Positions 44,021 to 64,000 of a stretch of 64,000 nucleotides of DNA are shown here, one piece after another. The DNA is from Candidatus Omnitrophota bacterium. GTDB lineage: Bacteria; Omnitrophota; Gorgyraeia; B26-G9. Each line of letters starts with the position of its first letter. Positions within the stretch are counted from its first letter, which is position 1. The notes below the pieces were generated by a model. It did no database searches. It worked only from the letters and a program-made list of their open reading frames with translations, and had not been told where the DNA came from. The position numbers and the translations under genes are program-made. Where the stretch lies: NCBI GenBank assembly GCA_043814605.1, contig JBDRJV010000016.1, positions 16,218 through 80,217 on the forward strand, written 5' to 3'.

Positions 44021-44049
44021 TTGACAACCACAACTTAATGTGATATACT
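44021..44049 (+). promoter_or_regulatory. consensus sigma70 promoter TTGACA-17-TATACT driving the giant-gene operon
   Basis: TTGACA at 44021-44026, 17-nt spacer, TATACT at 44044-44049; predicted TSS near 44056, about 360 nt upstream of the first CDS. Confidence 0.6.
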
Positions 44050-44055
44050 TTTATC

Positions 44056-44912: not shown

Positions 44913-44931
44913 ATTGACAGTTCGGTTTTTT
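44901..44931 (+). terminator. hairpin plus T-run (partial terminator or attenuator) overlapping the stop codon of the 44418 CDS
   Basis: CCGAACTGT-TAAATTG-ACAGTTCGG followed by TTTTTT. Confidence 0.5.
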
Positions 44932-44944
44932 ATTAACACATTTT

Positions 44945-45313
44945 TTGCAGTCTAATAAAAGGATGGTGGTTCGGATGGAAGAAAGAAGAAGATATAAAAG
45001 AGAAAATAAGGAATTTTCCCTGCAGCTAAATGAGTTAAACAAAACAGACCATATAGCCATAAAGAATTCTTTTTGCCGGGATATTAGTTGTGTGGGTTTA
45101 TCAATATTTTCTTTTGATTTTTATCCGGTTAACCAGAAAGTGCATTTGAAATTATATTCAAGTACTTGGAATGAATTATTAGATACAGTAGGGAAAATTA
45201 TTTGGGTGAGGCAGCTGCCTTATCAAAATAAATATAGAATTGGTATAGAATTCACAAATACAAGCCAGGATGCAATGAAAAAAATTAAAACGATTGTTGA
45301 ATCCGGAAAATAA
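44945..45313 (+). CDS. PilZ domain protein (putative c-di-GMP receptor)
   Basis: RxxxR motif (RRRYKR) near the N-terminus and D-x-S-x-x-G motif (DISCVGLSI) about 30 residues later; 122 aa. Confidence 0.6.
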   Translation: MQSNKRMVVRMEERRRYKRENKEFSLQLNELNKTDHIAIKNSFCRDISCVGLSIFSFDFYPVNQKVHLKLYSSTWNELLDTVGKIIWVRQLPYQNKYRIGIEFTNTSQDAMKKIKTIVESGK

Positions 45314-45339: not shown

Positions 45340-46062
45340 ATGAAAAACAGAAAATTTATTAAAAGTTTGATCAAAAAAACAGGATGTGTTTTATTACTGC
45401 TTGGGGTTATCGCATTTTCCTCTTTAAGTTATGGCCAGATGGATGAGGTAAGCCAGCTTAGCGAAAATAACCACAAAGCCGAATTAGCCAATGAAGATAC
45501 TGGACAGGTAAAAAATATACCTTTTACCAATTATACCGGCGATGACCTGCCTTTAATGGGGGATGCGCGTGTTTCCAGTATTAAGGAAACTGTTACTGGC
45601 TTAAAAGATGCAGGGTATAGTTTAGATGAAATTGTTGGCGTATTAAAAAATGATGATAAAAATGCGCCGGAAATCAGTATCGCTTGTTTAAATGCCGGAT
45701 TTAACGGAACAAAAATTTTTCAGGCATTAAAAAAATCCGGATTTTCAGATCGCAGTACCGAAGCGGCAATTCCGCCGGCCCTGCGTACAAGCAGCCAGAT
45801 GTTCGTAACTTTAAATAGTAATCCAGATTCTGTGGCTGCAGAAATGGCAATGATCGAAGCAAATCCGTTTACATCTAGAGGCGTTAAAGATGCGGCAATA
45901 CAAAAAATTATGCAAGGTGAGCCAGAGATTCAAGACGATAAAACAACAAACACTTCCGGAATTAATCCTTATGAAGTAAAGGTTAATGTGGGAGTGACTT
46001 TTAATGGTTTAGGTGATTGGAATAATTTTCAAAATCAAAGGTTTGAAAACAATAAACAATAA
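45340..46062 (+). CDS. hypothetical secreted protein
   Basis: 240 aa with a signal peptide (VLLLLGVIAFSSLSYGQ); no catalytic motifs. Confidence 0.45.
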   Translation: MKNRKFIKSLIKKTGCVLLLLGVIAFSSLSYGQMDEVSQLSENNHKAELANEDTGQVKNIPFTNYTGDDLPLMGDARVSSIKETVTGLKDAGYSLDEIVGVLKNDDKNAPEISIACLNAGFNGTKIFQALKKSGFSDRSTEAAIPPALRTSSQMFVTLNSNPDSVAAEMAMIEANPFTSRGVKDAAIQKIMQGEPEIQDDKTTNTSGINPYEVKVNVGVTFNGLGDWNNFQNQRFENNKQ

Positions 46063-46076
46063 TTTAGGGGGTAAAT

Positions 46077-49000: not shown

Positions 49001-52000
49001 GGCTGTTGCTGCGGGCTCAATGGTGGCAGAAGAATCGATCAGGCAAATGGGGTACCACGAAAATTGGGATCCTTTACTTACAAATAGCCTAGCTTCAATA
49101 ACTGGGTTTACAGTCCAGGCAGGTTTTGGAGCAGCTTTAGGCGCGGATTATTCAATACAAGATGATCCTGATACCAAAAAAATAGAAACTGCATATAACA
49201 ATACAAATCCTTTTTTCACAAGGTTGGGACATAATTTAAGAGCAGGATTAGGAAATGTGGTGGGAGATATTGCTTCGGATTATGTAGCTAGAATTTGTCA
49301 GGAAAATGAAGTAGACCCAACAATTACTGCAGTACTTAGTTCATGGGCTGGAACATTTACGACATCTTCTGTAGATTATATGACCGGTCAGACAGATTTG
49401 GGTTATTTAAATACTTTGGGAAAAGCAGCGGAACAAGGTACTTACGATGCTGTTTCAATTGTTACTTTTATGGAAACTAAAAAGTTATTAATGAACGAGC
49501 TTGATTTTACAGAAACCCAGGCTACAGGCATGGCCTATGGCATGACTTTACCCATGAGATTTATGTTTAGCCATAATAAAGTTGCAGAGGAAAATAAAGA
49601 TGGTTATATTGGCGGTGAATTTAAAGATGGGAAAGTATCATATGAAGGAATAACAATTAAGGATGAGTTTATTCGCGAGCAAGTAGGTGAGTTTTTTGAG
49701 AGCTTAGGGTATGGCAGCAAGCTTAGCGGTAATACATATGAACGGCATGATTATAATAGTAATTATAGTAATAAAGTATCATCTTTTGAATATATGTTAT
49801 TTGGCCAAGGCCTTACCCAGGATTTAGAGGGTAATTTTTATAGCAATGACGGCAGCATCAGTAATTACGGTACGCTAAATAAAAATAAGTTAGAGTATTT
49901 AAATTATTGGGCAGAAAAAAATCCCGAAATATTTGGCGAGAAATTTGATAGTAATACTGATGTAGAAAAAACAACGGATACCAATACTGATACTAAAGCT
50001 TCTAATTTAAGTTACGGCGATGCCTTGTTTACTACGGTTTCTGATGCACAGCTCAGTTATTATAATAAAAAAGGCATGACAAATATTAGTCAGGGACTCT
50101 CTGATGCGAGTGCTCACTACAAATATCAAAATAAAATAGACAGGTTAAATAAAATGGAGGGCGTTGACGTAAAGCTGGGAGAAGAATATGGGACTAAGAT
50201 TGTAGTAACTAATAATTCAGGGCAGGCAACAGAAGAATTATCATCAGAATTAAACAAAAATGTGGGAGAAGGAGACAGTGCTTTTTATGATTCTGCAGAC
50301 GCTTTTATCAATAATAATCCTTTGGTAATTACAAAGGCAGAAGGTACGAATTTTAGTACTGAATTAAGCAATGGAATGGAAGTTAAGTTTAATAGTTCTG
50401 ACAATGTATTTGAAGGACAAGGAGTTATAACAACACCAGTAAATTCGACTAACATAAATCAACTTTGCCCCAGTTTGAATGTTAATGCCAATTTACTAAA
50501 TGCTAACCAATATAATAATTATTCTTTAGTTGCGCAAGTAACTGTAGATTTGAAAAGCAAGACAATCATCCAAACAACCGATATGAAATTAACTGCAACT
50601 GCTACATCAACTAAAAACGTGATCCTGCCGGTCAATATCGGTAACCACACAGCTTATATTGGTGTTGAAACAAATGTAAATTTCAGTAATCAGGATTTAG
50701 TTTTAAAAAGTGATTCTCAGCTGAAAAATGATTATCAGCCTACAAATGATAATATTAAGGCAACAAATACCAGCGAAAAAGCAGCGGATGTTATTGTAAA
50801 ATACGACGCCGAAAATAAAGTTACGCTGAGTGTAAACAATATGGGACAAATAGGGATATCGAAAGAGACAATTAAAAATTTTAATGATTCAAAACAGTTA
50901 GTTAGTGATGTGATTGATTTACCGAATGGCTGCGATACAACCAAGACAGAGTTTGAACTTGTCTATAATACAACAGAAGGTTTGCAATTAACCGCAGTTG
51001 AAAATATTGCTGCGGGTAAAAAAATAAATTATGATGGCGAAGATGCATTCATAACCAGCAGCTCGGCACAGCTTATCTATAACGAGTCAGGAACAATAAC
51101 ATCGATTAAGGGGGAAGATACAAGGTCAAATCGATCAGGGAAAGATGTTACAGGGGTAGAAATTAAAACTTCCAAGGGTAATATTCTGCTGGAAAATAAA
51201 AACCAGATTTCTTTTGCCAATGAAAAAAGTGGTTTTCTTTCAGGTTTAAGTTCCTACTTTGGTATCGGCGGCGGAAATGAGTTTGTGATTGAAAACGGCA
51301 ATGTTTTGATGCTTACTAAGTACAACCTTGGCCAAAAAACAGAATATGAAATAATCCGCAATGGCCAAGAAGGCGGAACAAGCCAGGAAACAAGAGAATT
51401 AAACGAGATAATAATTGGCGAAGATAAAGCTTCGGGTAATTTGTTTATAGCCGAAGGGTGTGTTGTGAACATGGTAAAAAATGATGTTGCATTCACAAAT
51501 AATGATGTAATCCATAATCAGGCGGGAAGGGCTATTAATGTTGGCGGCTTGCAAATTAAACAGGGTGAAAATACTGCGATTCATAATAATCAAGCATTTA
51601 AGTGTATAGAAGTGACAAAACCTGTTGCTGAGGCTCGAGGGGATCTTAAATATCTGCTTGTAGTAAATAATTTAAAATCTAAGGAAAGTTATGATTTTCA
51701 AGTAGAAAATAATAATGTAAATTTACCTTTAGGTGATATTGATAGTAATGACATTTATTTAACTCAGAATGGTTCTCTGTCGTTTTTAACAGATAAAGCG
51801 TTTCAGGGTTCAGAAACAAAAAATCTTGATTTAAATGCAAAAACCACTACTTTTAATTTGAATCCTACAGAAATTAAAGGTCAGGTTGAAATAGATTTTA
51901 CACAAATCGGGCTAAAAGGCAAGACAGAAGGCAAAGGGTTACTTATTGGAGATAAATATGTAACCGGAGCAACCCAGCTAAGTGGAACAGGCAGCGGTAC

Positions 52001-55000
52001 CATAGATGAAACAAACACAATTATAATAAATGTTGATAAGCAAAATAATGAATCTTATTACAAGGGAGGAGAAGTAGTTTTAAGTGAAAACGGGTTAGTG
52101 TATAAACCCGGAGATAAACTTGAGATCACTGGTTTAGACAAAGGCAATACTTATGATCCAGGTCAGGGTCAATATACAGGAGCTTATGTTTCTACAGGTA
52201 ATGTAAAAATAATAAATGATGGAACTTACAATGTTAATCAAAATTATGTTACCAGTGAGAATCAAAATAGCCAAATCATATTCACGCTTACTAATGCTAA
52301 TGATCAAAAAATAGATTGTTTAATGAGTTTAAATCAGCCTATAGGAGAAGCAAAGGCTGGCCAGCAGCAACAATATACATTTAATTTTGCTAAAGAACAT
52401 GAAGGGTTGTCTTTAAATAGTGCATCTGGCAGAAAATACACCATTACACTGGATGAATCTAAATATATTCCTTTAAGTCAATCAGTGGCTTGTACAGGTC
52501 AGATTGAAACAGTAGAAATTAATGGGAATTCAAGATTAACAATCAATCAACAGGGTAATGAAGTTACAGCGGATAAGATTATTTTAACAGGTTCTAAAAG
52601 TACAATTGATGCTGGAGCGCAGATTGGCAAACAGACTGAAGATAAAGTAGAAATTATTGCCGGTGATTTGCATATTGATGCTTCGGATAAGCGTTTTGTT
52701 GGTACGGATACAGTGGCTACTTCTAAAATTGACCCTTCTCTTCAAGATAAAAAAGATCAAGAAACCCCAAAGACAATCACTTTTTCTAAAGATAATAAAC
52801 AAGCAACTATTCATTACACGGGTAATTGTGAATATTACTTAACCGGTGATGTTAGTTTTAATAAAGAAGGTCTTTATCTGGATAATGGAACTATATTTAA
52901 GGTTGCTGGTTCTGAAAATATTACTGGCTTTAATAATGCCGTAACAGTTTGTGATACAAAAGTCATTGAGGGGAAATTTCTCATTAATAATAATACTTTA
53001 GTTGCCCTTGATTCAAGTTGTCTTACCGTTGATGACCGGGCGCAAAGCGTTAATGGAAGTGAGAATTTATTTACGGTTAGTTATAAAGTAGAACTTACGG
53101 AGAAAGAAGGGATTTCTACTGTAAAAAGCATTGAAAAAAATTATATGTTTAATCGGGAGAACATTAATAGCCAAATTATATTTGATCAGGATTTAGGTAT
53201 AATCGGTAAAGTTGTAGAGAATAAAAAGGGAGAAATTTCCCTAAGTATTAATACTGCTGGGGGTAAAGAAGTATTAACAAATAAATATGTGGATGTATCA
53301 GTAAAGGAAACAACCCATGGTACAGGCAAGATTGTTACTTTAACAGATTCTAAAAATAGCATTATTGCTACAGCTGGTAAGATCCAGACAAGTGATGGGA
53401 AAAATCTTACTATGTGGAGTACTCAAAACGCTACCACTTATTTGCTTGAGGGTAAATCTCTAGCCCAGGGGCAGCAAATTTCTATTGGCAAATTTGACTA
53501 TACTGCAGGAAAAGATTTAGCTCCGATGCGTATTGAAACCATGAGTTTTACAACAAAAAATAGCACAGCTTTTAATTTTCAAGGAAACAAACTAAATCTT
53601 TCCGGCAATGTGAATTTGCACATCAATGCTTTTGAGCAGCAGCTGGGCATATCGGGTACAGATAAGCGCGGTAAATTAACGGGTATTGAGTTTACAAAAG
53701 CCAACAATGAGCAGTTTCTTTTAGTTAATGGCGCCCAGGCCCAGATAGTTAAAATAGATGAAAATAAATATGAATTGATTGTGACCAGCGGAACAGCCTA
53801 TGCGATTACGGATAATACTATTGGCAAGAAGACTGATTTTAAAACAGATAAACAACTCGGAAAAGATGGAGGCAAAACTACTGGTTTAAATGAAATTGTA
53901 ATAATCGATAAACCAAATGGCGATATTGCGATTGAAAAAGGGTCTCAATATACGGTTGCTCGTAATAATGAAACCGGACAGACAGAGGTTGTATTTAAAG
54001 AAAACGATAAGATTATTAATAATAGTAAACAAAAGATTACAATTAATGGGTTTACAGTGGCAGAGGGGAAAACCGCAGCCATAAAATTTGATCATGTTTA
54101 TATCCAAGGCAATACTTACAGTTTTCAAGGCAAGGATTACACCTTAACTAATTTTAATGACTTTGATTTAATCTGGACAGATACCCGCAATATCCAGGGC
54201 ACAATATCTGAAGCTAATTTACACGCAGATAAAAATGCAGTTAACTTTATTTTTAAAACTGATAAAGCAACTTATGAAGTAAAAAGCGGTAAAGAAGTTG
54301 GGTTAAAAGGTAATGCTTATTATCATATTAATGACATTGATGTTTGGGCTACTGGGATTGAAGATAAGTTTATTAAAGATGAAAACGGCAATACAGGCTG
54401 GAAGTTTGAAAAATTAGTGAACGGATCTACGTATAAAACAAAAGTTAACGGTGTTGAGGTTGTATTTATTGTTAAAGACAATAAATTAATGGCCAGTAAC
54501 GGTAGAGAAATTGGCCCGCAAAATTTAGGAAAGAATAAAAATTATAAAGATTCTGAAGGTATTACACATGATGATGTAGATATTTATGTTACTCAGGCAC
54601 TGGCTAACGGCCAGTTTGTTTTGGGTACAGACAAGCAGGGTGCAAACGCTTGGGGTCAGGTTCAAGCAGGAGTTAGTGAAGGGGTGTCTGATCTGACAAT
54701 TCAAGGCAATACTCATGCGAGTATTACTTCTGAGCAGGTAACCAGAAAAGACGGTACGCAGCAAACCGTGAATATTTATAGTACAGCTGCTGACGGGAAT
54801 TTCAAGATAGTATTTACTGCAGATAAAGACCTGAATAATACGGTTATTAAAGATAATCTCAAGGGAAGCCATTTAGATGTTTTGGGAGAAGCAGTGATAA
54901 ACGGAAAAACAGTTCTTGACGGTGCAGCAATAGATTATGTTGAGAAAAACGGTAATATTGTGCCTGAATTTTCTCAAGGTTCAAGAATATTAGAACATGA

Positions 55001-58000
55001 TTTTGGCTCAGGCCAGCAGATAATCAGTGTTTACCAGGGTAAAGATATTAAAGGCAATGATTTGGGCTGGAAATGGCATGCGGATAGTTCTCTGGTAGAT
55101 AAAGAATGGAATAATAATATTTATATTGATGGTAAAGCTAACCCAGTAACCTGTAAATTATCTGCTACAGAAACAGGGTTTGAAGTATTGATAAAAAATG
55201 GACAAGGGGTAAATTTAGGAAGGTCTGAAAATTTTGTAGATTCTCAAGGCATAAAACATAAAGATGTGGATATTTGGGTTACCCAGAAACTGCCTAATGG
55301 CGAATATGTATTTATGGTAAAAGATAAGGGGAAAAATGACTGGCAGCAGGAGCAATTAGATTTAAAAGGCGGTTCTCAGGAATCCATACATGGATCAACT
55401 TATGCAAAAGTTACTGATCAGGAAATTAACGGAAAAACAATCCGTAATTATTCAGAAAAATCTAATGGTCAATTCCAGTTAATATTTACGGCAGATAATC
55501 AGCTTAAGAACATGGGCATAAAAGATAATTTAGATGGCAGCAGCTTAGAAGTTGTTAATGCAAAAATCGGGGATAAATTTATTGTTAAAGGAGGGGTAAA
55601 TTTTATCCGGGATAAGCAGGGCAATGTCCAGGCGAATTTTGATAATGGCACTGTATTTCTTAATGCAGACGGCACACAAGGGGTTGTTACCGAAGGGGAG
55701 ATTCCTGCGCCAAAGGCTCCGGAAAAGAGTTATCTTGATAACTTACAAGAGAGATTTGGCCCGGAGGTAAAAGGAGCATCTTTAAAATCAGATAGCTGGC
55801 AGCAAATTAATAGTGAGAAAACCGGGCTCTTTGGTGAATACAAGTATGATTCTAAAACCGATACTTACACATTTAAAGGAACATATATTGTTTCTGAAAG
55901 CATTGAGATTTGGCAGGCAGAGTTGAATTTTACTAGTGATTTTCAGATGAAATCTGCTTCCGGCAGGGTTTTTGCCAATGTGGAGAATGCAAAGATAAAT
56001 ATTGCAGGAGATAATTTTGTGATTAAGACTGATCAAGCTGTCTCCGGTATGATTGAAATAGGTAAATATACTAACCAAGGAACAATTATCCTGGATCCAT
56101 ATTCTGATTTGCAGCTTTATAACCAGGTTAAAAATAATCAGGTTTTTATTTTTGGCAATGAGCAGGGTAAAAATGCAGAGTTTTTTATTAATAAGGAAAA
56201 GAATTTAGTTTTATGGAACGGCGTTATCGATGAAAGTAACGGGAGCTTTAGCTATTCCAGTACTGATCAGACCCAAACTAAAACTAAAACACAAGAACAA
56301 AAACCCCAGCAGCAGCAAAAACAAATACAGACTGGAGTAATTACTGATATTAAAATTTCCGGGAATGAAAAAAATGGCTATAACTATTCCGGAATTGTGG
56401 AAGTAAGGCAAGGGGAAAAGCAGATTTTAAATTGTGAAGGTGCAAGATTAATCGTAGAAAAAAGCGGATTCCAGTTTGGCAATATTGATTATGATTATAA
56501 TTCTTTATTAATCGGGGATAAAAGCGGTAATTTAGTGGCTCAGGACGGCTCAAGCGGAACAAAGCATCTTAGTTTTGAGGGATCTGATAAAAAGGTAGAT
56601 GTTAATTTTACTATGGCAAACGGCGGAATGAATATTACAAACATCAGCGGAGATACACACATAGATTCACAAGTAAAGACAGACTGTGGGGAAATTTCTT
56701 ATGAATATGATTTAGTTGTAGTAAAAAATCAGCTGATCAGTATAAATCATACGACTTCCTGGATTGAGAATAATCAGGAACCTGTAATTATTAATGAAAA
56801 AAATGCAAAAACAGTAACTTTTGAAGATCAGGGCAGGGATTACAGTTTTGAAAAAAAAGGCGATATCTATGTGCCTTATGCAGAGGTTAAGACGACTAAC
56901 TCAATTAATAGTTTGGTATTGGGAAAAGATGCTGAATCCTCTATAACGATACAACTTACTCCGACAAAAGAATTAACTTGTGTGTATGATTTACAGGGCA
57001 ACTATACTACCAAAGCTGGGCAAGATACGCTTGAAGGCCAAAAAGGCACTGTATTTAATTATGTGTATAACAATGAAACAAAAGAAGTGTTTGTCCCTGA
57101 TGGAACCATTTTTACTGCAGACGTAGAGAATTCAGGGGTTGTGATTACCGGAAAATTAAATATATTAAAAGAGGGTCATTTTAATCTTAATATTGGAAAA
57201 GACCAAGTTCACATTATGCCAAGCTTAGGAGGTACTGATAAAACCACAACTGATGATCGGGCAAACAAGATCAAGGTGAATGTCGATGTGCAGAATATGC
57301 TTTATGCAGAAGAGGGCTGGATAAGTTTGTATCAGGGTAATTTTTTGCCTGGGGAAAATGATTGTTTAGTGAATAATAGCGCAAGTTCAATTACGCTGCT
57401 TACTCCGGGACAAGACAGTAAACCCGTAGTGGTTAAAACAGGACAAGAAGCAATAATTAAAAATAACCAGGCCTATATTATTGGTAGTCAGGTTACCGCA
57501 GAAAAAAATTATATAGATAAAAACAATAGAATTTGGGTTGAGGGAACCTATGATATTTCCGCAGAAGGTAAATTTGTAGTAGTTGATGGTTATTTTATGC
57601 AGCAGGATTATCAAGCTAAAGATGGAACGATGTTCAGATTAAAAGATGATCAGTTTTTAACTGGCTACTCAGATAATACCGGACAAATTTGTTATGATCA
57701 GGGGCAAGATGTTGTCGCTTCTAATGTGTTAACGGATCAGCAGAATAATCAGCTTTCTTTGTTTACTAATTTAAAAACAGACCAAGATGGCATGCTTACT
57801 GAGCAGAATTATTATAAATTAGATAATCAGCTGCTTGAAACAGGTCAAAAATTCATTTTTGATGAAAAGCCCTATGTTATGCAAGAGCATAATGGGGAAG
57901 TTATGCCTTTATTTAAATCAAATAAGAATTTTACTAATGATAACCCGTTAATTTATTATAAAAATGGAAATAAAATTGAATTAGTCGGAGAAACTACTTT

Positions 58001-61000
58001 ATTGTATAACATTAAAGACCAGATGGTTGGTATCGAAGGCCAAACGCTGATAAAAGGAGAAAATGGTAAGATTAGCGGTACCTTATTTACAACAAATGAT
58101 GATTCTCAGAGCCAGTTTATAATTGAAAATAATAATAAGGTTACGCTGAAAGATGGCCAGCTGAATATTGGTTTTGCGCACCTTTATGCTGTAGATAATT
58201 ATAATACTTATCAAAAAGAAACCCTAGATTTAATTTCTAATGCAAGCTTAGGAAACTTAAAATCCGATACCAAAGAAAATCATATCTATTTAACCAGTGA
58301 TGCCGACAAAAATATCATCATAGAAAAAGGCAGTAAATTTACCGTACAAGATAACAACTTTGTAATTACTAATAATGATGTAATTTATACCGATAAAAAT
58401 TTATGGGTTACAATTTTAGTCGGATCAGGCGCAGCACAAGAAAAAATAGATCTCGGCCCTAATTCCGGAGGAATGGTCAAGGACGGGAAATTTTATGAAG
58501 CCGGAGATAGATTTGCGACAAATAACAAAAATATTCAAGGCAAAGTCGCGATTAATGCTACAACAAACAAGATTGAACTTGTTTACGAGGTGGTGGGGGT
58601 AGAAAATTCAGGAGATATCAAAGGAAACGGTAAAATCTTAAAGATGAATGATGATTATGTGATCAGTATCCAAAAAACTGATGAGGGCGATACAGAAAAA
58701 CGTTTATATGAGGTGGTCACTTCTCCTAATGGGCAAAAAAGCTTAAAGCAAGTTGATCAGATTTCTGTCCAGCAAGAATATAGTGTTGATTTTGGGCAAC
58801 GGACTTTAATCGAAAGCACTACCGTCAGTGTAGATGAAAAAGATATTGAGATAGAGACTGATTATAAGCTGATGGGGCATAAGCTAGCAGTAGGAGAAAG
58901 TGTAGATGTTCGCGCAATAAGTTTTCAGCAAGATCAAGATCCAGAATTTATTTATAATGGGCGTAAATATGTACTTACAAAGTTAGAAAATGGAAAGTTT
59001 ACTCCGGAAAGTTATGATGTATATGAAGCAAACAGTGAATTTATTCAGGGGCTGGTAGTTTTAGATAGTAAGGGAAGACAAGGCCAGATCGATCCTGAGA
59101 GGAATAAAAAAGTTACTGTAATGTTTAATCTTCAGGGAGAGGCCGTGGCTTTAATCGGAGATGGTTTTACCAGAGATGAAAGAGGAGAAAAATATTACGG
59201 TGTTGTTCTCACTGCAGAACATGGGGATCTATTAATTAAAAATGGGAAAAATTCGATTAGTATTAAAGATAATACGCTGACACTTATCCAGGCAGATGCG
59301 ATTACGATGACGCTTTGGGATAGCGGCCGGGAAATAACCCAGGTAAAGGATTCAGATCCGGGTTTAGGCAAGAGTGAGGCTCCTAAAGAAAACAAGATTT
59401 CTGTTACTAAAAGTCAAGGGATTGTTTTTGTTAATTTAAAACAAAACATTACGCTTTTTAATAATGATTGGTTTTTAACAGCGGGAGATGTTCTGGTGAA
59501 TAATTCTCCACAAGCTGAGCAAATACATATTTTATCAGCTGATGGGCGGACAATGTACAGTGTGGAACACGGACAAGAAGCAGCTGTAGAAAATGGAGGT
59601 ATTAAGTTAACCAAAGGTATCAATGCAATTGATTTGAATAACGCGAATATTGTTCAATTAGATAAAAACGGACAGCCCACAAAAACGATCACTAATCCCG
59701 GAGAAGATACTAGCTGGGTAAATGGTAATTATTTGGTTGCCACCAAAGGGGAGAATGGAAATTTTGAATTTACATCTGCGACAGGAGAGAAGTTAGGCTG
59801 GAACATGGCTAGTTTATATAATGTTCAAGCAGATAAAAATATTGTGGAAGTATCTTATCTTGGGAAAAAGATTTCATTAGATTCAACACAGTTTACTAAT
59901 GAGAATGACGGCGAGAGTTTTGGCTCTAGTTACTGGGCTAATGAATATGGGGTTAATGATACAGTATTATTAGAGCAAAGTGATTCATTCTCAACTTCTT
60001 TAAATACATTTTGGCAAACAAATAAAGCAGCAATTGGTGAAGCTGCTTTAGTAATCGGTATAGGTTTAGCAGCAGCAGCGGCTATAGTTGTTTTGCCAGC
60101 ATCTGTTTATATTACTGCGGCTACTTATGGTTCGGTTTTAGGTGTAATGGCTTTAACGGTATCTCTCAGCACCGATAGTTACATGGAATTAGGTAATATC
60201 TTAGCTAATGCTGAGGATACAAATAGTACTGAGAATCTATTCTGGGGCCGCGTTCTTTTTGAGACGGCATCAGCTTTTAGAACAGTGGCAGGGAATTTGG
60301 GAGTGGGGGGTCAGGTACACGGGGAAAGCAATATAGAAACGCCGATTATTGGAGGAGTTAATGCCGGCCATGTTATCGCAGCTGCTACAATTATATGCAT
60401 GGTATACACTGCCGGAGGGCTTGGATTTATAAAGGCATTAAAAGGGCCTTTAGTTTCTCTTTCCAATATTAATCTTGGATTAGTAGGAGAACAAATGTTT
60501 ACCTTAGGAAAAAATTTAATAGGGAAAGGTTTGAACGGAAAAGAAACTTTGGTTAAATCTTGGACTGGCTTGTTAAAATCTTTTGGGGCGATAAAGGGTT
60601 TGCATGTGGGTTTGTGGACAGCAGGGCATATGGCTAATATGCTGCCTGATCATAATCCAGCCTCAGAGTTATATCAATTAGTGCTTTCTCCATTTGCAAT
60701 GGGTGCAGAGTTTACACCAGAGGGATTATGGACAACTGTAAAAGGAGGAGAAAATTGGGATGATATAATCATGACTAACCTACACTTAGCGGGGTTTGCC
60801 GGGCTGATGTATTTTAGTGGGCCGATTCTAGAGTTATTGGCAAGTTCTAGAATTGGTAATTTTAGCGGTCAGTTTTTAGAGGTTTCATTTGGCGAAGGTG
60901 CTGCGGCAAGACTTTCAAGCAGAATGATAAACGGGTTAATTGAAGAAGGCGTCAAAGAGCAGGCATTAGGGGTAATTTTACGTCCTATTTTTGGCAATCA

Positions 61001-64000
61001 GCTGACAGAGTATCTTGTAGAATTCTGTTTTCCAAATTCTGGGGCTTTGATGAACGGTAATGCCTATACCCAGACTGAGTCTGTAGCTAAGCACCAAATG
61101 GTTTCTCAGGATGTGGTGCTGGGAAAAGCCGGCATAGAAACTGTGGATGATTTAAATGCTTATTTATCTAGTCGTAGTCAGGATGGACTAACCGCTACTA
61201 GTGGCGAATATAAGTCTCCATTACAACAGACAACAAATGAAGAACAAACAAATCTTGAATCTGCTTTTCAGGAATTAAATCAATATATTAATGAAAGAAA
61301 AGAAAGTGGTATAGGGTCAATGTCGTTAAAAGAATTTTTTGCTAAGCATAATTTGACAGCTGACCAGATCGATATTGTCTTGAGTGAATTATCTGGAGGA
61401 GAAGGGATCTCTTTGGGAAGTATTAGTGAGTATAGGGATACTGAAATAGAGACTTTGTCTGCTTCTGTTGGGGTAAGATACAATATTCCATTTGCAGTTA
61501 CTAAAAATACACTTACAGAGATTGCCAAAGGCACTGGCCAGAGTGTTGAAAATATTATTAAAAAATTGAATTTAGAAAATAATCAAAATGTAACTGGTCA
61601 AACTAAGCTTTCTGAGCTGGCGACACTAACCGGCCAGGATATTGAGGAAGTTACAGAAACAATCGGTGTATCTATTGCCTATGCAAGTATTACTGATTCC
61701 ACAGAGCTTAGCAGTATTGCTCAAGAGTTAGGTAAAAAAGAAGAGGAAGTAGTTAAAGAACTAGATCAACAACTAAAAACACAAGATATGCAACATATAT
61801 CAACAAGTAATATCTCAAACTCAGCTACTTTACAAAGCTTAGCGCAGTTATATGGGGTCAGTTCGGCAGAGATTACGGATACTCTTGGCCTAAAATATAA
61901 TCCGACTGTATTAGTAGATAGAATGTCTATAGCTCAAATAGCGCAAAAATTAGGCTGGGATTTAAATAATTTCGAAACAGAATTTGAATTAGGAGAGATT
62001 ACTATTGACCAAATAGCCCAAGTGACCGAACAAGAAGTTCAGGTGCTTATTCAACCACTAAACAAAGATAATAATATAACCGGTCAAACAAAAATCAGCG
62101 AGATTACAGGTAAAAGTATAATTGATACTTTAGATTTCTTAGGAGTAAATCTAAATACCTTAGCGCAAATAAAGGGATTTAGCAGTACGGAAGAGTTTGT
62201 CTCGCAAGAGTTAAATGCTGATTACAGCAAATTACGCACGGTTGAGGTTAATATTGATCAGCAGGATGGCGCGATTAGCCTGAATAATTTTAATAATGTA
62301 AACTTCAAAATAGACAGGACTGCAGAAAGCGATCAAGGCCTTACTTTAATCACGCCGAATTATTCCTCAAGATGGCTGAAGCTTTTTCATTCTCTTGATT
62401 CTCTTGTGGGAGGTAATTTTACAAAGAATTATTTATTCAAGGTCACTATTAATAATATTGATTCACAGGAAAATCAGCAAGCATATTATTTTAACAGCGC
62501 AAATAATCTAAAAATTAAAAAACTTGCAAATGTCAACGCTAATGATAGAAACAGCCAAGAAAGTCCGGCTTATGTACTGGCTGCGTATAAAGGCAATGCT
62601 AATGTGCGCACAATCCAGGTTTCTCATCAGCCAAAACCTGAAGTGTTAAGTGAGGTAGAAAATCTGGCTGCGGATGATATTTTTGAGCAATTAGCAGGAG
62701 CTTTAAATTTAGATAATGTTTCGGGCACTAATATATCAAGATTATTGGATAAAAATGGGATTGTACCGGATTTTTATACACCCGGTGATATTATTTCCAG
62801 TAATTCTGCAATAGGTTTTAGTTTTGTGATAAATACTATGAGTGATAATTACACAAAACTAAATGAAAATCAAAAACAACAACTAAAAGAGTTTGTCGAT
62901 AAACTAAATGTTGTCATTTCCTCTTTTGTCGCGGTTAAAACAGTGCAAGACATTGATATTTTGGTAAAGGAAATTAATGCTAACATTAAAAATAGTCAAA
63001 TTAGTACTGCGGATTTAACAATAATCTTATCAAAATCAGGACTGGTTACGGTAGAAGGAGATAAGCTGGATGCGTTAGTCAATAAAATATTAGAGCCTCT
63101 CAATAAATCTTTAAGTGATCATAATGGAAAACTTGACCGAGAGTCTTTACATCAAGTGCTTAGAAATGCCAATGCTCTGGGTGAAGACGGAGTAGAATTT
63201 TTAGGTTTTAGAGAAGATAAAGCAGAAGCTTTCATGAGTTTTATTAATGACCCGACCTTAGGCCATGAAATTAAAACTGGTGCGGGAAAGACCGAATATC
63301 TGATCCATTTAAATGCCCTGGCAGGTTTAATTTGCGGGCGAGAAAGAAGCGTAGTAGTTCTTTCTGATTCAGGAAAGTTAAATGAGGCCTATAACACAAA
63401 TGACCGAAGCAAAGAGCTTTATAATAGTCTGTTAGGTGAGGATTCTGTGGTAGTGATTGATAGTACTACAGAGCGAAACCAAAAAACTAAAGAAACTGTT
63501 GAGAAGATTAATAATCCTAAGACCAGGGTAATTTTTACAGAAAGTTCTGTGCTGGGATTTTTAACTGATTCTAGCCGAAATGGCAAACCCGAGCAAAAAG
63601 AATTGTTTAAATTATTAACTGAAAATATCCAGCTGGTACAGGATGAAATCCATACCATGCGTGGTCAAAATTATATTCGCAGCCATGGCAATGGCAATGA
63701 TAAGCCATTAACCCAATCACAAATAAAAGCAACCCAAACCCTGCGTGATTTTATAATAGCAAATAAAGACTCTCTTGGCGGAATTATAAATGAAAAGGAA
63801 TACATTGATTTAAGTGCATTGGTTTTAACTACTGACTCCGCAGGAGCGCAAGCTGCGCCTGTTTTTAATGACAAGTTTTTTGAAAGCTTGGCAGCTTATT
63901 TGACTAAAATTGAATTTCTGGGTGAGGGTAAAACAATAAAAACAGATATGTTAAATGGCTCTGATTATTTAAGTTCCCCAGAGTTAAAAGAGATCCGTTG
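46077..64000 (+). CDS. giant multidomain membrane/surface protein, 3'-partial (over 5,970 codons within the window; continues past the window end)
   Basis: Frame 0 is open from the ATG at 46077 (RBS GGGGGT upstream) to position 64000. Spot translations at 48420, 55620, 60000 and 63960 are stop-free and protein-like. No other plus-strand ORF of 60 aa or more exists across 18 kb of ~35% GC DNA. Contains a hydrophobic N-terminal anchor, helical repeats, a C39-like peptidase, two TM clusters, a huge beta-rich repetitive middle, and a C-terminal SecA-like Walker A/DExH region. Confidence 0.85.
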   Translation, partial: MSSLTGKLWFKITAFIVLETFLFTIADISWAADYRDQKTQAERLMDLQPLKDTRENLSQDALGDKIVLTQPAVPFLGIEHPQGMLTQKPMSLTETTIYGLTIAGNDLTTIFKSLKNSGSSVTDAGFSAVRQGFNKKEIYHALLKAGYDEKEVKTLLGSLLKAEEEKKKQAEENQEKKTSPPEEKEQVQGQTPLVKEQAIFEIPKVATLPVKEKAVEIINDSQKQFALHRQTVEFVRLMIKEGKRGKELINILKKAGLSNERIITTLAQLGFSLQNIISILKQADLNCEDIVKAVQSSQLTYSNKDIYTALIQSGYSDKDIISAFKDAGMSAEDILKLTTDLGRNMIIIAQAMLNAGFSMADVARAYVLKAMQWSYDLSVNIVNCAVESFSAFLNNIGRKFSSKEDLAYELILDDILATGEVDLQGKNIMTSMLAIKNIATKYGIDLQGYKLTIDSLQELSGMSILHLDADHWVSLVGIEGDKATIIDNGTRKTITLSELQVRWDGNILALNKDKIKEHKLYDLQMRQIRGASWLSDAWEDATNWVKDAVEGVGDFFVDVYNGVNDFVQGVNNLIVSFYYTACGNQQKADYYWNKGMQLIDQVVLKIIKAIPNNGIQHVLESVWSGIRMYVQGVGNVIKGSIMMLRGDFKEGFYLMTAGFTQMAVSGLVALYKVCGEDGGRFIGRFIQWVVRIVAAILTFIFTKILGWTVVGMIVGMIIAFIATMIICMVDYDFVQYVSTADAAGISKVMGKVLAAACISAAVAAVGFFVGYALDGLFSSTGSELATTTNTGTTTTASSVTSQVGTGLSIGTTSMVSTTAQAFSTIATNLATIGTSLATAAYNLGVSLYLAVISFSITNIIGSLLMFVDAFIEFVIAVKDSFKGFFSEFSKNVSADISQNCANSGVTVNQEVLKEALDSGLKNMLVQQAVMTGVVYGCEAAGIDDPYLKAVIVGVAGALAGSYGGPGGWEETFKEMAVAAGSMVAEESIRQMGYHENWDPLLTNSLASITGFTVQAGFGAALGADYSIQDDPDTKKIETAYNNTNPFFTRLGHNLRAGLGNVVGDIASDYVARICQENEVDPTITAVLSSWAGTFTTSSVDYMTGQTDLGYLNTLGKAAEQGTYDAVSIVTFMETKKLLMNELDFTETQATGMAYGMTLPMRFMFSHNKVAEENKDGYIGGEFKDGKVSYEGITIKDEFIREQVGEFFESLGYGSKLSGNTYERHDYNSNYSNKVSSFEYMLFGQGLTQDLEGNFYSNDGSISNYGTLNKNKLEYLNYWAEKNPEIFGEKFDSNTDVEKTTDTNTDTKASNLSYGDALFTTVSDAQLSYYNKKGMTNISQGLSDASAHYKYQNKIDRLNKMEGVDVKLGEEYGTKIVVTNNSGQATEELSSELNKNVGEGDSAFYDSADAFINNNPLVITKAEGTNFSTELSNGMEVKFNSSDNVFEGQGVITTPVNSTNINQLCPSLNVNANLLNANQYNNYSLVAQVTVDLKSKTIIQTTDMKLTATATSTKNVILPVNIGNHTAYIGVETNVNFSNQDLVLKSDSQLKNDYQPTNDNIKATNTSEKAADVIVKYDAENKVTLSVNNMGQIGISKETIKNFNDSKQLVSDVIDLPNGCDTTKTEFELVYNTTEGLQLTAVENIAAGKKINYDGEDAFITSSSAQLIYNESGTITSIKGEDTRSNRSGKDVTGVEIKTSKGNILLENKNQISFANEKSGFLSGLSSYFGIGGGNEFVIENGNVLMLTKYNLGQKTEYEIIRNGQEGGTSQETRELNEIIIGEDKASGNLFIAEGCVVNMVKNDVAFTNNDVIHNQAGRAINVGGLQIKQGENTAIHNNQAFKCIEVTKPVAEARGDLKYLLVVNNLKSKESYDFQVENNNVNLPLGDIDSNDIYLTQNGSLSFLTDKAFQGSETKNLDLNAKTTTFNLNPTEIKGQVEIDFTQIGLKGKTEGKGLLIGDKYVTGATQLSGTGSGTIDETNTIIINVDKQNNESYYKGGEVVLSENGLVYKPGDKLEITGLDKGNTYDPGQGQYTGAYVSTGNVKIINDGTYNVNQNYVTSENQNSQIIFTLTNANDQKIDCLMSLNQPIGEAKAGQQQQYTFNFAKEHEGLSLNSASGRKYTITLDESKYIPLSQSVACTGQIETVEINGNSRLTINQQGNEVTADKIILTGSKSTIDAGAQIGKQTEDKVEIIAGDLHIDASDKRFVGTDTVATSKIDPSLQDKKDQETPKTITFSKDNKQATIHYTGNCEYYLTGDVSFNKEGLYLDNGTIFKVAGSENITGFNNAVTVCDTKVIEGKFLINNNTLVALDSSCLTVDDRAQSVNGSENLFTVSYKVELTEKEGISTVKSIEKNYMFNRENINSQIIFDQDLGIIGKVVENKKGEISLSINTAGGKEVLTNKYVDVSVKETTHGTGKIVTLTDSKNSIIATAGKIQTSDGKNLTMWSTQNATTYLLEGKSLAQGQQISIGKFDYTAGKDLAPMRIETMSFTTKNSTAFNFQGNKLNLSGNVNLHINAFEQQLGISGTDKRGKLTGIEFTKANNEQFLLVNGAQAQIVKIDENKYELIVTSGTAYAITDNTIGKKTDFKTDKQLGKDGGKTTGLNEIVIIDKPNGDIAIEKGSQYTVARNNETGQTEVVFKENDKIINNSKQKITINGFTVAEGKTAAIKFDHVYIQGNTYSFQGKDYTLTNFNDFDLIWTDTRNIQGTISEANLHADKNAVNFIFKTDKATYEVKSGKEVGLKGNAYYHINDIDVWATGIEDKFIKDENGNTGWKFEKLVNGSTYKTKVNGVEVVFIVKDNKLMASNGREIGPQNLGKNKNYKDSEGITHDDVDIYVTQALANGQFVLGTDKQGANAWGQVQAGVSEGVSDLTIQGNTHASITSEQVTRKDGTQQTVNIYSTAADGNFKIVFTADKDLNNTVIKDNLKGSHLDVLGEAVINGKTVLDGAAIDYVEKNGNIVPEFSQGSRILEHDFGSGQQIISVYQGKDIKGNDLGWKWHADSSLVDKEWNNNIYIDGKANPVTCKLSATETGFEVLIKNGQGVNLGRSENFVDSQGIKHKDVDIWVTQKLPNGEYVFMVKDKGKNDWQQEQLDLKGGSQESIHGSTYAKVTDQEINGKTIRNYSEKSNGQFQLIFTADNQLKNMGIKDNLDGSSLEVVNAKIGDKFIVKGGVNFIRDKQGNVQANFDNGTVFLNADGTQGVVTEGEIPAPKAPEKSYLDNLQERFGPEVKGASLKSDSWQQINSEKTGLFGEYKYDSKTDTYTFKGTYIVSESIEIWQAELNFTSDFQMKSASGRVFANVENAKINIAGDNFVIKTDQAVSGMIEIGKYTNQGTIILDPYSDLQLYNQVKNNQVFIFGNEQGKNAEFFINKEKNLVLWNGVIDESNGSFSYSSTDQTQTKTKTQEQKPQQQQKQIQTGVITDIKISGNEKNGYNYSGIVEVRQGEKQILNCEGARLIVEKSGFQFGNIDYDYNSLLIGDKSGNLVAQDGSSGTKHLSFEGSDKKVDVNFTMANGGMNITNISGDTHIDSQVKTDCGEISYEYDLVVVKNQLISINHTTSWIENNQEPVIINEKNAKTVTFEDQGRDYSFEKKGDIYVPYAEVKTTNSINSLVLGKDAESSITIQLTPTKELTCVYDLQGNYTTKAGQDTLEGQKGTVFNYVYNNETKEVFVPDGTIFTADVENSGVVITGKLNILKEGHFNLNIGKDQVHIMPSLGGTDKTTTDDRANKIKVNVDVQNMLYAEEGWISLYQGNFLPGENDCLVNNSASSITLLTPGQDSKPVVVKTGQEAIIKNNQAYIIGSQVTAEKNYIDKNNRIWVEGTYDISAEGKFVVVDGYFMQQDYQAKDGTMFRLKDDQFLTGYSDNTGQICYDQGQDVVASNVLTDQQNNQLSLFTNLKTDQDGMLTEQNYYKLDNQLLETGQKFIFDEKPYVMQEHNGEVMPLFKSNKNFTNDNPLIYYKNGNKIELVGETTLLYNIKDQMVGIEGQTLIKGENGKISGTLFTTNDDSQSQFIIENNNKVTLKDGQLNIGFAHLYAVDNYNTYQKETLDLISNASLGNLKSDTKENHIYLTSDADKNIIIEKGSKFTVQDNNFVITNNDVIYTDKNLWVTILVGSGAAQEKIDLGPNSGGMVKDGKFYEAGDRFATNNKNIQGKVAINATTNKIELVYEVVGVENSGDIKGNGKILKMNDDYVISIQKTDEGDTEKRLYEVVTSPNGQKSLKQVDQISVQQEYSVDFGQRTLIESTTVSVDEKDIEIETDYKLMGHKLAVGESVDVRAISFQQDQDPEFIYNGRKYVLTKLENGKFTPESYDVYEANSEFIQGLVVLDSKGRQGQIDPERNKKVTVMFNLQGEAVALIGDGFTRDERGEKYYGVVLTAEHGDLLIKNGKNSISIKDNTLTLIQADAITMTLWDSGREITQVKDSDPGLGKSEAPKENKISVTKSQGIVFVNLKQNITLFNNDWFLTAGDVLVNNSPQAEQIHILSADGRTMYSVEHGQEAAVENGGIKLTKGINAIDLNNANIVQLDKNGQPTKTITNPGEDTSWVNGNYLVATKGENGNFEFTSATGEKLGWNMASLYNVQADKNIVEVSYLGKKISLDSTQFTNENDGESFGSSYWANEYGVNDTVLLEQSDSFSTSLNTFWQTNKAAIGEAALVIGIGLAAAAAIVVLPASVYITAATYGSVLGVMALTVSLSTDSYMELGNILANAEDTNSTENLFWGRVLFETASAFRTVAGNLGVGGQVHGESNIETPIIGGVNAGHVIAAATIICMVYTAGGLGFIKALKGPLVSLSNINLGLVGEQMFTLGKNLIGKGLNGKETLVKSWTGLLKSFGAIKGLHVGLWTAGHMANMLPDHNPASELYQLVLSPFAMGAEFTPEGLWTTVKGGENWDDIIMTNLHLAGFAGLMYFSGPILELLASSRIGNFSGQFLEVSFGEGAAARLSSRMINGLIEEGVKEQALGVILRPIFGNQLTEYLVEFCFPNSGALMNGNAYTQTESVAKHQMVSQDVVLGKAGIETVDDLNAYLSSRSQDGLTATSGEYKSPLQQTTNEEQTNLESAFQELNQYINERKESGIGSMSLKEFFAKHNLTADQIDIVLSELSGGEGISLGSISEYRDTEIETLSASVGVRYNIPFAVTKNTLTEIAKGTGQSVENIIKKLNLENNQNVTGQTKLSELATLTGQDIEEVTETIGVSIAYASITDSTELSSIAQELGKKEEEVVKELDQQLKTQDMQHISTSNISNSATLQSLAQLYGVSSAEITDTLGLKYNPTVLVDRMSIAQIAQKLGWDLNNFETEFELGEITIDQIAQVTEQEVQVLIQPLNKDNNITGQTKISEITGKSIIDTLDFLGVNLNTLAQIKGFSSTEEFVSQELNADYSKLRTVEVNIDQQDGAISLNNFNNVNFKIDRTAESDQGLTLITPNYSSRWLKLFHSLDSLVGGNFTKNYLFKVTINNIDSQENQQAYYFNSANNLKIKKLANVNANDRNSQESPAYVLAAYKGNANVRTIQVSHQPKPEVLSEVENLAADDIFEQLAGALNLDNVSGTNISRLLDKNGIVPDFYTPGDIISSNSAIGFSFVINTMSDNYTKLNENQKQQLKEFVDKLNVVISSFVAVKTVQDIDILVKEINANIKNSQISTADLTIILSKSGLVTVEGDKLDALVNKILEPLNKSLSDHNGKLDRESLHQVLRNANALGEDGVEFLGFREDKAEAFMSFINDPTLGHEIKTGAGKTEYLIHLNALAGLICGRERSVVVLSDSGKLNEAYNTNDRSKELYNSLLGEDSVVVIDSTTERNQKTKETVEKINNPKTRVIFTESSVLGFLTDSSRNGKPEQKELFKLLTENIQLVQDEIHTMRGQNYIRSHGNGNDKPLTQSQIKATQTLRDFIIANKDSLGGIINEKEYIDLSALVLTTDSAGAQAAPVFNDKFFESLAAYLTKIEFLGEGKTIKTDMLNGSDYLSSPELKEIR

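Follow-up and report, generated by a model that had tools for sequence, protein, structure and literature searches.

A putative SecA-type motor domain within a giant membrane-anchored protein of Omnitrophota

The end of the window (the whole 64,000-nucleotide stretch that was analysed) encodes part of an ATPase motor. Positions 63174-63998, which translate in frame with a giant open reading frame (ORF), probably (roughly 0.6) hold the start of a highly divergent SecA-type SF2 motor in a membrane-anchored giant protein, where an inserted domain would clamp polypeptide for export or assembly. Motifs I and II of RecA lobe 1 and what lies between them are in the window, as is the beginning of the inserted domain. 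The first-pass annotation described the domain as cut by the window edge, and the insert is indeed truncated there; the peptide it quoted for 63260-63660 is the exact translation of those bases.

A six-frame scan for open stretches, with translation, gives a single open frame at 46068-63998 on the forward strand. Its product has at least 5,977 aa, and the frame runs off the window end (Table 1); there is no stop codon in 17.9 kb, and the DNA there is 36% G+C. Judged by its relatives, the full protein probably has 7,200-10,000 aa. No Pfam family matches the middle region at E <= 0.01; this region carries an internal duplication (aa 2821-2978 and 3051-3201; 39% identity, E 2e-31). The motor lies ~800-1,050 aa downstream of the second transmembrane-like cluster, and the relatives P0001 and P0003 align with the giant protein from that cluster onward (HMMER). 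The best-scoring unit of the helix-turn-helix-like repeats falls slightly below the Pfam cut-off (E 2.8e-5; 24.2 bits, cut-off 25.3). The 'LGIS..DL' unit of these repeats is found again inside the motor of relatives.

Table 1. Features of the giant ORF and its motor
Feature	Position	Strand	Basis or remark
Giant ORF	46071..63998	+	open from 46068; likely start GTG 46071 or ATG 46077; truncated by window end
N-terminal hydrophobic segment, signal-peptide-like (LWFKITAFIVLETFLFTIADISWAA)	46098..46172	+	hydropathy scan; signal peptide reading by eye
Possible catalytic Cys upstream of C39 match, within VNCAVESFSAFLNNIGRKF	47220-47276	+	by eye only
Peptidase C39 domain, aa 433-516	47364..47615	+	Pfam PF03412, E 1.2e-10, 41.8 bits (cut-off 22)
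Possible catalytic His of C39 domain, within DADHWV	47478-47507	+	by eye only
First cluster of transmembrane-like helices, aa ~691-884	48138..48719	+	Kyte-Doolittle peaks 2.1-2.8
Beta-rich, Asn/Thr/Gly-rich middle region, ~3,400 aa	49665..59987	+	without Pfam match
Second cluster of transmembrane-like helices, aa ~4659-4924	60042..60839	+	hydropathy
Short helix-turn-helix-like repeat run, aa ~5080-5400, between membrane anchor and motor; best-scoring unit	61503..61670	+	Pfam IF2_N
RecA-like lobe 1 of putative SecA-type ATPase, N-terminal half	63174..63656	+	conservation, hhalign, AF2 model
Motif I / Walker A TGAGKT	63276-63293	+	translation
LNALAGL	63309-63329	+	translation
SVVVLSD/GKLNEAY	63348-63392	+	translation
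GF-containing motif RVIFTESSVLGFLTD	63525-63569	+	translation
Motif II LVQDEIHT	63633-63656	+	translation
Large inserted domain after motif II (PPXD position in SecA), beginning only	63657..63998	+	aligns with insert of relatives; cut by window end

An exhaustive HMMER search gave nine matches to the giant protein (E 3e-116 to 4e-8). The best alignment covers aa 5703-5977, the most conserved stretch of the protein. The same motor is encoded at a further 12 genome loci and two metagenome loci, in ORFs of 2,755 to >7,487 aa. The search and contig scans thus give ~20 relatives, every one within a very long ORF, from Omnitrophota, Auribacterota, UBP3 and one MAG labelled Planctomycetia. Invariant among them are E, T, G, K and T of motif I, the GF pair, and D, E, I, H and T of motif II. 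Relatives do not share a second 'GEGKT', at aa 5952 of the giant protein, which is put down to chance. The motor had been placed at the C-terminus of the giant protein; what ends there is only the window, and in relatives the ORF runs 1,450-4,100 aa beyond Walker A.

The motor family consists of SF2 ATPases with two lobes; relatives keep Walker A, DExH and motifs III and V intact, as well as the motif VI arginines. An insert of ~250 aa separates motifs II and III, at the position of PPXD in SecA; the part in the window matches it at YIDLSALVLTT and AAPVFNDKFF. The insert ends in VVPVSFG..R.FS.PY.A.VK..FG, then MTGT; motifs V and VI lie in a second RecA lobe further on, the downstream lobe that the first-pass annotation had asked for. 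AF2 models the P0001 motor (pLDDT 74, pTM 0.75) with two RecA lobes and, past lobe 2, a helix of 44 residues; its model of the window fragment has a parallel beta-alpha-beta core. By hydropathy, Omnitrophota relatives have transmembrane-like segments at the same relative position as the second cluster of the window, and neither they nor the window have such a cluster downstream of the motor. Auribacterota and UBP3 relatives, one of them a complete 3,090-aa ORF, have no transmembrane-like segment, so membrane tethering is not universal.

Profile comparison and Pfam place SecA as the nearest known family of the motor, at a remote distance, which agrees with the SecA affinity first proposed for this P-loop DExH lobe. 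In hhalign, the motor family matches 25 diverse SecA sequences with a probability of 90% (E 1.6e-6). The N-terminal half of lobe 1 scores 63.4 against SecA (94.6%, E 6.9e-8) and 39.5 against 17 DEAD-box helicases (63.9%), in a comparison confined to these two groups; reversed-profile controls gave P of 0.2-0.9. In the family-SecA alignment, the GFDYLRD-like motif, DEVD, the PPXD signature and GMTGTA line up in the same order; the alignment reproduces the motif-for-motif correspondence claimed earlier. LNALxG after the P-loop is common to SecA and the motor family; DEAD-box helicases have a TPGR motif where the motor family has GF..D. The best Foldseek TM-score (0.34/0.43) and the longest structural overlap are also with SecA (3dl8_A).

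Other comparisons show how distant this kinship is. One relative, L007, passes the Pfam SecA_DEAD threshold (26.3 bits, cut-off 24.6); most family members reach no more than sub-threshold, generic DEAD matches, and the window fragment alone has no SecA_DEAD match. The fragment alone also has no PDB sequence match; it reaches P = 2-5e-4 against the SecA profile over only 21 columns, and its best Foldseek match (E 0.018) is to generic SF2. Searching the PDB with motor family HMMs brings up no SecA chain, and E. coli SecA reaches 2.7 bits with the family HMM. Lobe 2 alone gives no match in the profile comparison; SecA_SW and SEC-C domains are absent from the relatives searched with Pfam. The SecA-specific insert is borne out in part: it is large and sits exactly at the PPXD site, but alone it matches PPXD at only P = 0.006-0.05 (reversed control about 0.08).

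The motor could also belong to the generic SF2 helicases or nucleic-acid translocases, XPD/DinG-like or RIG-I/Hef-like, without specific SecA kinship. Its substrate would then be DNA or RNA; it might, for instance, handle nucleic acid at the membrane of a cell living as a predator or epibiont. In XPD/DinG proteins, too, an insert separates motifs II and III, and there is a DEAH box. The best Foldseek E-values go to RIG-I, MDA5 and LGP2 (2.6e-5), motif II is DExH, some relatives lack transmembrane segments, and six relatives have only sub-threshold generic Pfam matches, to DEAD (up to 25.9 bits, cut-off 26) and weakly to ResIII. This reading is nevertheless unlikely: SecA_DEAD is the sole curated threshold passed, DEAD_2, Helicase_C_2 and Helicase_C have no Pfam match, and the insert aligns at the PPXD signature columns every time. 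The hhalign scores and the LNALxG and GF..D motifs argue in the same direction.

Extreme divergence, long branches, the failure of standard profiles and the fast evolution of giant proteins (West-Roberts et al., bioRxiv 10.1101/2023.11.21.568195) might instead suggest a catalytically dead ATPase relic, retained purely as a structural or interaction scaffold. This reading is very improbable: the motor is the best-conserved segment of the whole protein, with G-K-T of Walker A, D-E-I-H-T of motif II, MTGT, GD.FG.D and Q..GR.RG with both arginines (nearly) invariant across phyla. Short motifs outside any true domain may look alike by chance, or the ORF may be an artefact; this reading would fit the unconserved second 'GEGKT' and pairwise BLASTP against E. 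coli SecA, which yields the P-loop only (E 0.15); it is refuted by the HMMER homologues, the loci of relatives and the confident two-lobe model, and the invariant motifs and 17.9-kb frame also speak against it.

The fusion had been regarded as an undescribed architecture. However, West-Roberts et al. reported in 2023 that giant proteins of Omnitrophota combine a C39 peptidase at the N-terminus with transmembrane anchors, a divergent SecA DEAD domain and preprotein-binding domains, without the scaffold/wing, and proposed self-export for them; a PF07517 architecture cluster is listed by Nielsen and Lui (2026). Architecture and export hypothesis are the same as those considered here; the motor fusion thus adds an example to a known kind of system. 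In the SecA-type reading, the motor module would be cytoplasmic, behind the second transmembrane cluster. ATP would be hydrolysed at the interface of the two lobes, and the insert would act as a polypeptide clamp, as in SecA. Simple export in cis is awkward because the motor is translated after the region to be exported. The motor may aid membrane export or assembly of the huge extracytoplasmic part of its own protein; alternatively, its cargo may be another copy of the giant protein, or a partner.

The window has a G+C content of 36% and is an ordinary stretch of bacterial chromosome. It encodes PEP carboxykinase, enolase, H+-pyrophosphatase, TilS, LysS, ClpB, RadA, IspD, IspF, CysE, CysS and a ROK protein. 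A tRNA-Val gene is found at 156-232, and two tRNA-Met (CAT) genes lie 1.6 kb apart (15035-15111 and 16680-16756). A single open frame of 5,977 codons runs from 46068 to the last base of the window and encodes the giant protein, the features of which are listed in the table.

Features of the giant protein and its SecA-like motor (aa, residue of the giant protein; other numbers, window positions)
Feature	Position	Description
Start of giant ORF		Signal-peptide-like hydrophobic segment
N-terminal part of giant ORF		Helical 'AGFS' repeats
Peptidase_C39 domain	aa 433-516	PF03412, E 1.2e-10
First cluster of transmembrane-like helices	aa ~691-884	
Beta-rich region		~3,400 aa, no Pfam match
Second cluster of transmembrane-like helices	aa ~4659-4924	
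Run of small helix-turn-helix-like units	After second transmembrane-like cluster	IF2_N, slightly below threshold
SecA-like motor	aa ~5703 onward	
Motif I	63276-63293	TGAGKT
LNALAGL	63309-63329	
RVIFTESSVLGFLTD	63525-63569	
Motif II	63633-63656	LVQDEIHT

The C39 domain (window 47220-47615) lies downstream of a signal-peptide-like start, an unusual location for a domain whose usual place, in ABC exporters, is the cytoplasm. Visual inspection points to a conserved candidate Cys for catalysis (VNCAVES..., aa 387) and a candidate His (DADHWV, aa 474); the domain may thus be an active processing protease rather than a dead C39-like domain. Within the beta-rich region, a unit of ~155 aa is duplicated (54528-55001 and 55218-55670; 39% identity, E 2e-31). 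In the visible part of the giant protein, neither glycosyl-hydrolase and dockerin domains nor any other enzyme domains were detected. The helix-turn-helix-like units ('L..LGIS..DL..') are found at 61300-62270 (aa ~5080-5400), between the membrane anchor and the motor, and score 24.2 bits against the Pfam IF2_N threshold of 25.3. The same units recur in relatives as an insertion after motif III (aa 456-500 of the segment from P0001, a relative from the Omnitrophota MAG GCA_043805415.1).

The peptide quoted in the first-pass annotation is correct and in frame with the giant ORF. The motifs in the window follow the SecA order (EIKTGAGKT...LNALAG, VLGFLTD, QDEIH), and in hhalign they align collinearly with the 'xKTGEGKT', 'LNALxG' and 'GFDYLRD'-type motifs and the DEVD box of SecA. 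The window fragment alone gives P 2-5e-4 against a SecA profile and 0.006-0.012 against a DEAD-box profile. It has no match among PDB sequences, and BLASTP against E. coli SecA matches only the P-loop (E 0.15). A word-indexed search for homologues of the last 400 aa gave no match. A model of the fragment (pLDDT 66) contains a parallel beta-alpha-beta core around the P-loop and DEIH; its best Foldseek match (E 0.018) is to generic SF2 proteins, the model being too partial for a specific fold match. A second 'GEGKT' at aa 5952 was rejected as a P-loop because it is not conserved.

Relatives were collected by an exhaustive HMMER search of 1.84 billion representatives with aa 4778-5977 as query. 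Nine proteins were found (E 3e-116 to 4e-8), and the best-aligned stretch common to them is exactly aa 5703-5977. TGxGKT and DEIH are separated by ~115-135 aa in these proteins, the exceptions being P0007 (NDEIH) and P0009 (SAGKT). The motor was found at 12 loci in a one-genome-per-species scan and at a further two in a metagenome scan, always inside open frames (2,755 to >7,487 aa); a word-indexed search with the family profile returned two fragments only. According to the records, the hosts comprise six MAGs of Candidatus Omnitrophota, two Auribacterota, one UBP3, a 'Planctomycetia' MAG, and unclassified bacteria. The relatives nearest to the window fragment, at 46-50% identity, come from Omnitrophota, except for one 408-aa fragment labelled Thermodesulfovibrionia by NCBI; judged from these relatives, the host of the window is probably an Omnitrophota bacterium as well. 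Judged by this sequence conservation, the motor region is clearly more than a chance resemblance.

The relatives carry the domain beyond the end of the window. After DEIH they have an alpha/beta insert of 250-400 aa, exactly where the preprotein cross-linking domain (PPXD) of SecA is inserted, between motifs II and III; the window holds the first ~105 aa of the insert. The insert ends in a conserved block (VVPVSFGxxDxxRxFSxPYxAxVKxxFG) and is followed by ESxQAxYxEFL, (S/T)MTGT (motif III) and a helical insertion. Lobe 2, the second RecA-like lobe, includes TVIxxxxGDvFGLDLK (motif V) and LQGFGRxRGY (motif VI, with both arginines conserved). The second lobe for which the first-pass annotation had proposed a check is seen in the relatives: GDvFGlDlK and QGFGRxRGY are found in every relative that is long enough, and its strands and helices appear in the AlphaFold2 model. 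In the window protein it would fall past base 64000. Genome, metagenome and viral contigs scanned with exact 61-nt probes from the window gave no match, as did exact-protein searches with two neighbouring genes. The AlphaFold2 model of the P0001 motor, built on a 10-sequence alignment (pLDDT 74, pTM 0.75), has two Rossmann-like lobes and the alpha/beta insert, and lobe 2 is immediately followed by a helix of 44 residues. In this model the helix could be the equivalent of the SecA scaffold helix. With a Walker A, a DExx motif II, motifs III and V, an arginine-bearing motif VI and two RecA-like lobes, the motor family belongs to the helicase-like ATPases of superfamily 2 (SF2).

The start of the insert (gYvdLsaLvvt...aPVFnd) also matches the nucleotidyltransferase region of Legionella DrrA (3nku, 6yx5) weakly, with E 0.12-0.24. 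The match recurs in PDB searches with family HMMs, at family insert profile positions ~215-261 (window ~63790-63890). The D-x-D catalytic pair is absent, and the match was rejected as probably due to chance.

Placement of the motor within SF2 depends on profile comparisons. The SecA profile comprised 24 diverse SecA genes, each sharing 44-64% identity with the E. coli gene, and authentic E. coli SecA itself, and the control profile comprised 17 DEAD-box helicases; the diverse SecA set and the DEAD-box set were gathered with degenerate DNA patterns. A search with SecA as query gave only enterobacterial SecA (at least 89% identity), too narrow for a profile, and a viral-contig scan with the enterobacterial alignment found nothing. 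In hhalign, the family matches SecA with a probability of 90% (E 1.6e-6), and the alignment is collinear through all the motifs named in the first-pass annotation and on to the PPXD signature and GMTGTA. For the N-terminal half of lobe 1, SecA (94.6%, E 6.9e-8, score 63.4) is a better match than DEAD-box helicases (63.9%, E 6.6e-5, score 39.5). Reversed-profile controls gave P 0.2-0.9 (0.59 for the N-terminal half of lobe 1). The motor is therefore nearer to SecA than to DEAD-box helicases, the one alternative SF2 family covered by the comparison. The insert alone always aligns at the PPXD signature columns (IVDefTGRxMxGRRxSdGLHQAiEAKEG), with P 0.006-0.05 where the reversed control gives ~0.08; for lobe 2 by itself there is no profile match.

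Curated families recognise little of this. SecA_DEAD is the only Pfam threshold passed by any member, and it is passed by one of the ~15 relatives scanned, at locus L007 (26.3 bits against 24.6, E 5.3e-6); the proteins P0001-P0005, P0007 and P0009 and the loci L005, L008-L011 and L013 miss it. Six relatives have only sub-threshold generic DEAD or ResIII matches. None of the relatives scanned has a Pfam match to SecA_PP_bind (PF01043), to the SecA_SW scaffold/wing (PF07516) or to the SEC-C zinc-binding motif (PF02810). Family HMMs found no SecA among PDB sequences, and the family HMM gives E. coli SecA 2.7 bits.

The main rival explanation is that the motor is an XPD/DinG-type SF2 helicase rather than a relative of SecA. 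Like the motor, XPD/DinG proteins carry an insert after motif II and before motif III; they also have a DEAH box. However, no Pfam matches to families of SF2 helicases with lobe-1 inserts (XPD/Rad3/DinG, RIG-I-like, Hef) were obtained, the structural overlap with these helicases appears shorter than that with SecA, and neither FeS-cluster cysteines nor nucleic-acid-binding accessory domains were seen. The SecA-like reading of the first-pass annotation is reasonable given the collinear motifs and the greater profile similarity to SecA than to DEAD-box helicases, although the window fragment itself has no match to SecA_DEAD (PF07517) at E <= 1. A further alternative takes the distance from SecA at face value: hhalign gives the same score of 63 for the family against SecA and for SecA against DEAD-box helicases. 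On this reading, which is improbable, the motor family would not be a SecA offshoot working with SecYEG but an SF2 clade of its own, its distance from SecA equal to that between SecA and DEAD-box helicases, with a specialisation in very long proteins across several phyla, TM-free members among them. If true, the clade could drive something undescribed: it might use ATP to thread, unfold or extrude its own giant polypeptide through the membrane helices of the same protein, or it might handle prey-derived macromolecules. Overall, the motor is a very deep branch for which 'SecA-type' is the best label, and its family membership is not secure. That it is the SecA-type ATPase module of a known giant-protein architecture is given a probability of roughly 0.6.

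The motor had been placed at the C-terminal end of the giant protein, and this has to be revised: where the frame ends within the locus, 1,450-3,300 aa follow Walker A in the relatives. The L007 frame is still open 4,100 aa past Walker A, and P0001 has TPR repeats ~1,400 aa downstream of the motor. In the window and in the Omnitrophota relatives, TM-like segments precede the motor by 800-1,100 aa and none follows it. The ATP that an ATPase requires is found in the cytoplasm; the whole part of the giant protein following the anchor, motor included, is thus predicted to be cytoplasmic. Strongly hydrophobic segments are missing from the relatives in Auribacterota and UBP3, even from a complete ORF of 3,090 aa; the motor thus occurs as a module in very long proteins generally and not only in membrane-anchored ones. 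At locus L012 (Auribacterota contig CAXXKF010000001.1; 113-2146 and 2860-3100), the gene preceding this 3,090-aa relative is built of near-perfect ~57-aa tandem repeats (TLDQISQAITDLQGISLAGIPANIQTLLNTQAGLDITGQTLTNIQAAIPAVNAL), which are identical to the N-terminus of the large ORF. The repeats could have expanded recently, or one longer gene could have been split or collapsed in assembly.

The sequences and the model show an intact set of catalytic motifs, a two-lobe SF2 scaffold and a clamp-like insert. Powered by ATP, the two lobes would open and close and so move the insert, in the manner of SecA. Polypeptide would be the substrate of the module, which would help the export or assembly of the giant extracytoplasmic region. 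Two observations call for caution about a role in export. The motor is made after the segment to be exported, and any action would therefore be post-translational or on another copy; the other is the existence of anchor-free relatives. Protein translocation as the actual job of the motor is accordingly a tentative proposal, and a somewhat doubtful one.

The region just upstream of the giant gene (44021-45313) contains a c-di-GMP riboswitch and a PilZ-domain ORF. A promoter-like site near consensus (TTGACA-17-TATACT, 44021-49) precedes a c-di-GMP-I riboswitch at 44142-44324 (RF01051; 41.9 bits against a cut-off of 35), which has unusual 52-nt insertions in both hairpin loops. A 164-aa signal-peptide ORF (44418-44912) lies 3' of the riboswitch; it is followed by a strong terminator-like hairpin (44899-44927) and a PilZ-domain ORF (44945-45313; PF07238, E 1.4e-9). 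The arrangement suggests c-di-GMP input into the neighbourhood of the giant gene, given putative read-through past the hairpin. No c-di-GMP riboswitch was found near the giant genes at six relatives' loci, and riboswitches, c-di-GMP and PilZ are unmentioned in Nielsen and Lui 2026 (bioRxiv 10.64898/2026.06.07.730766). A secreted-looking ORF of 240 aa (45340-46062) is located immediately before the giant gene. Helical repeats of ~15 aa ('xxIxxALxxAGFS') are common to this ORF and the N-terminal 400 aa of the giant protein (46077-47276; BLASTP E 6e-8); the ORF may be a paralogous fragment or a partner of the giant protein.

Full-length giant proteins of Omnitrophota have an N-terminal C39 domain near signal peptides and numerous TM helices (West-Roberts et al. 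2023, bioRxiv 10.1101/2023.11.21.568195). After the TM anchors they carry 'divergent secA DEAD helicase domains' and SecA preprotein-binding domains, without scaffold and wing; these form a long-branch clade apart from housekeeping SecA and may, the authors suggest, export the giant protein itself (West-Roberts et al. 2023). Of the architecture clusters formed by 916 long Omnitrophota proteins, the two largest are those of PF03412 and PF07517 (Nielsen and Lui 2026). The earlier claim that the architecture was undescribed is therefore wrong, both reports having it. The present protein is a member of this group: the ORF is at least 5,977 aa long and has the C39 domain (E 1.2e-10); of its two TM clusters, the second precedes the motor by ~800-1,050 aa; and its nearest relatives are in Omnitrophota MAGs. 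It shares with the giants described in 2023 the N-terminal signal peptide and C39 domain, the TM clusters, a huge unannotated beta-rich middle, and TM anchors followed by a SecA-like motor without scaffold/wing and zinc-finger domains. Whereas proteins of >30 kaa were emphasised in 2023, the present one is at least 5,977 aa and probably ~7-10 kaa; its motor subfamily is more divergent and also occurs in TM-less long proteins of Auribacterota and UBP3.

Like housekeeping SecA (E. coli b0098; PDB 2fsf, 3bxz, 3dl8), the motor has LNALxG after motif I, then a GF..D motif and an acidic motif II; a large insert separates motif II from motif III (MTGT), and the second RecA lobe carries a motif VI of the GR.GR type and is followed, in the model, by a long helix. 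The two differ in that identity is 8-14%, DEIH replaces DEVD, the insert exceeds that of SecA by ~100 aa (by far more in some relatives), there is a helical insert after motif III, and SecA_SW, wing and SEC-C are undetectable in the motor. SecA is a soluble dimer, whereas the motor, as read from its sequence, is fused inside a giant membrane protein. The accessory Sec system of Gram-positive bacteria (SecA2/SecY2) exports very large serine-rich-repeat adhesins and is similar in concept, being a dedicated SecA paralogue serving one huge surface protein. However, SecA2 is a separate and clearly recognisable SecA encoded beside its substrate; the motor here is in the same polypeptide and is far more divergent.

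The locus is a further example of a known architecture, and what it adds is modest: a shorter member, a motor subfamily mostly escaping PF07517 and PF01043, and relatives outside Omnitrophota. The picture given by the 2023 and 2026 preprints is left as it is. Together with its relatives, the locus defines a motor subfamily which is mostly missed by standard Pfam and whose hosts include Auribacterota, UBP3 and one MAG that carries the label Planctomycetia; the number of such fusions is therefore probably underestimated wherever PF07517 is the basis of a survey. As to how bacterial proteins of thousands to >100,000 residues are made, inserted and exported, the only obvious clue to a mechanism is a SecA-like ATPase built into the protein, and the locus provides a compact example with intact catalytic motifs.
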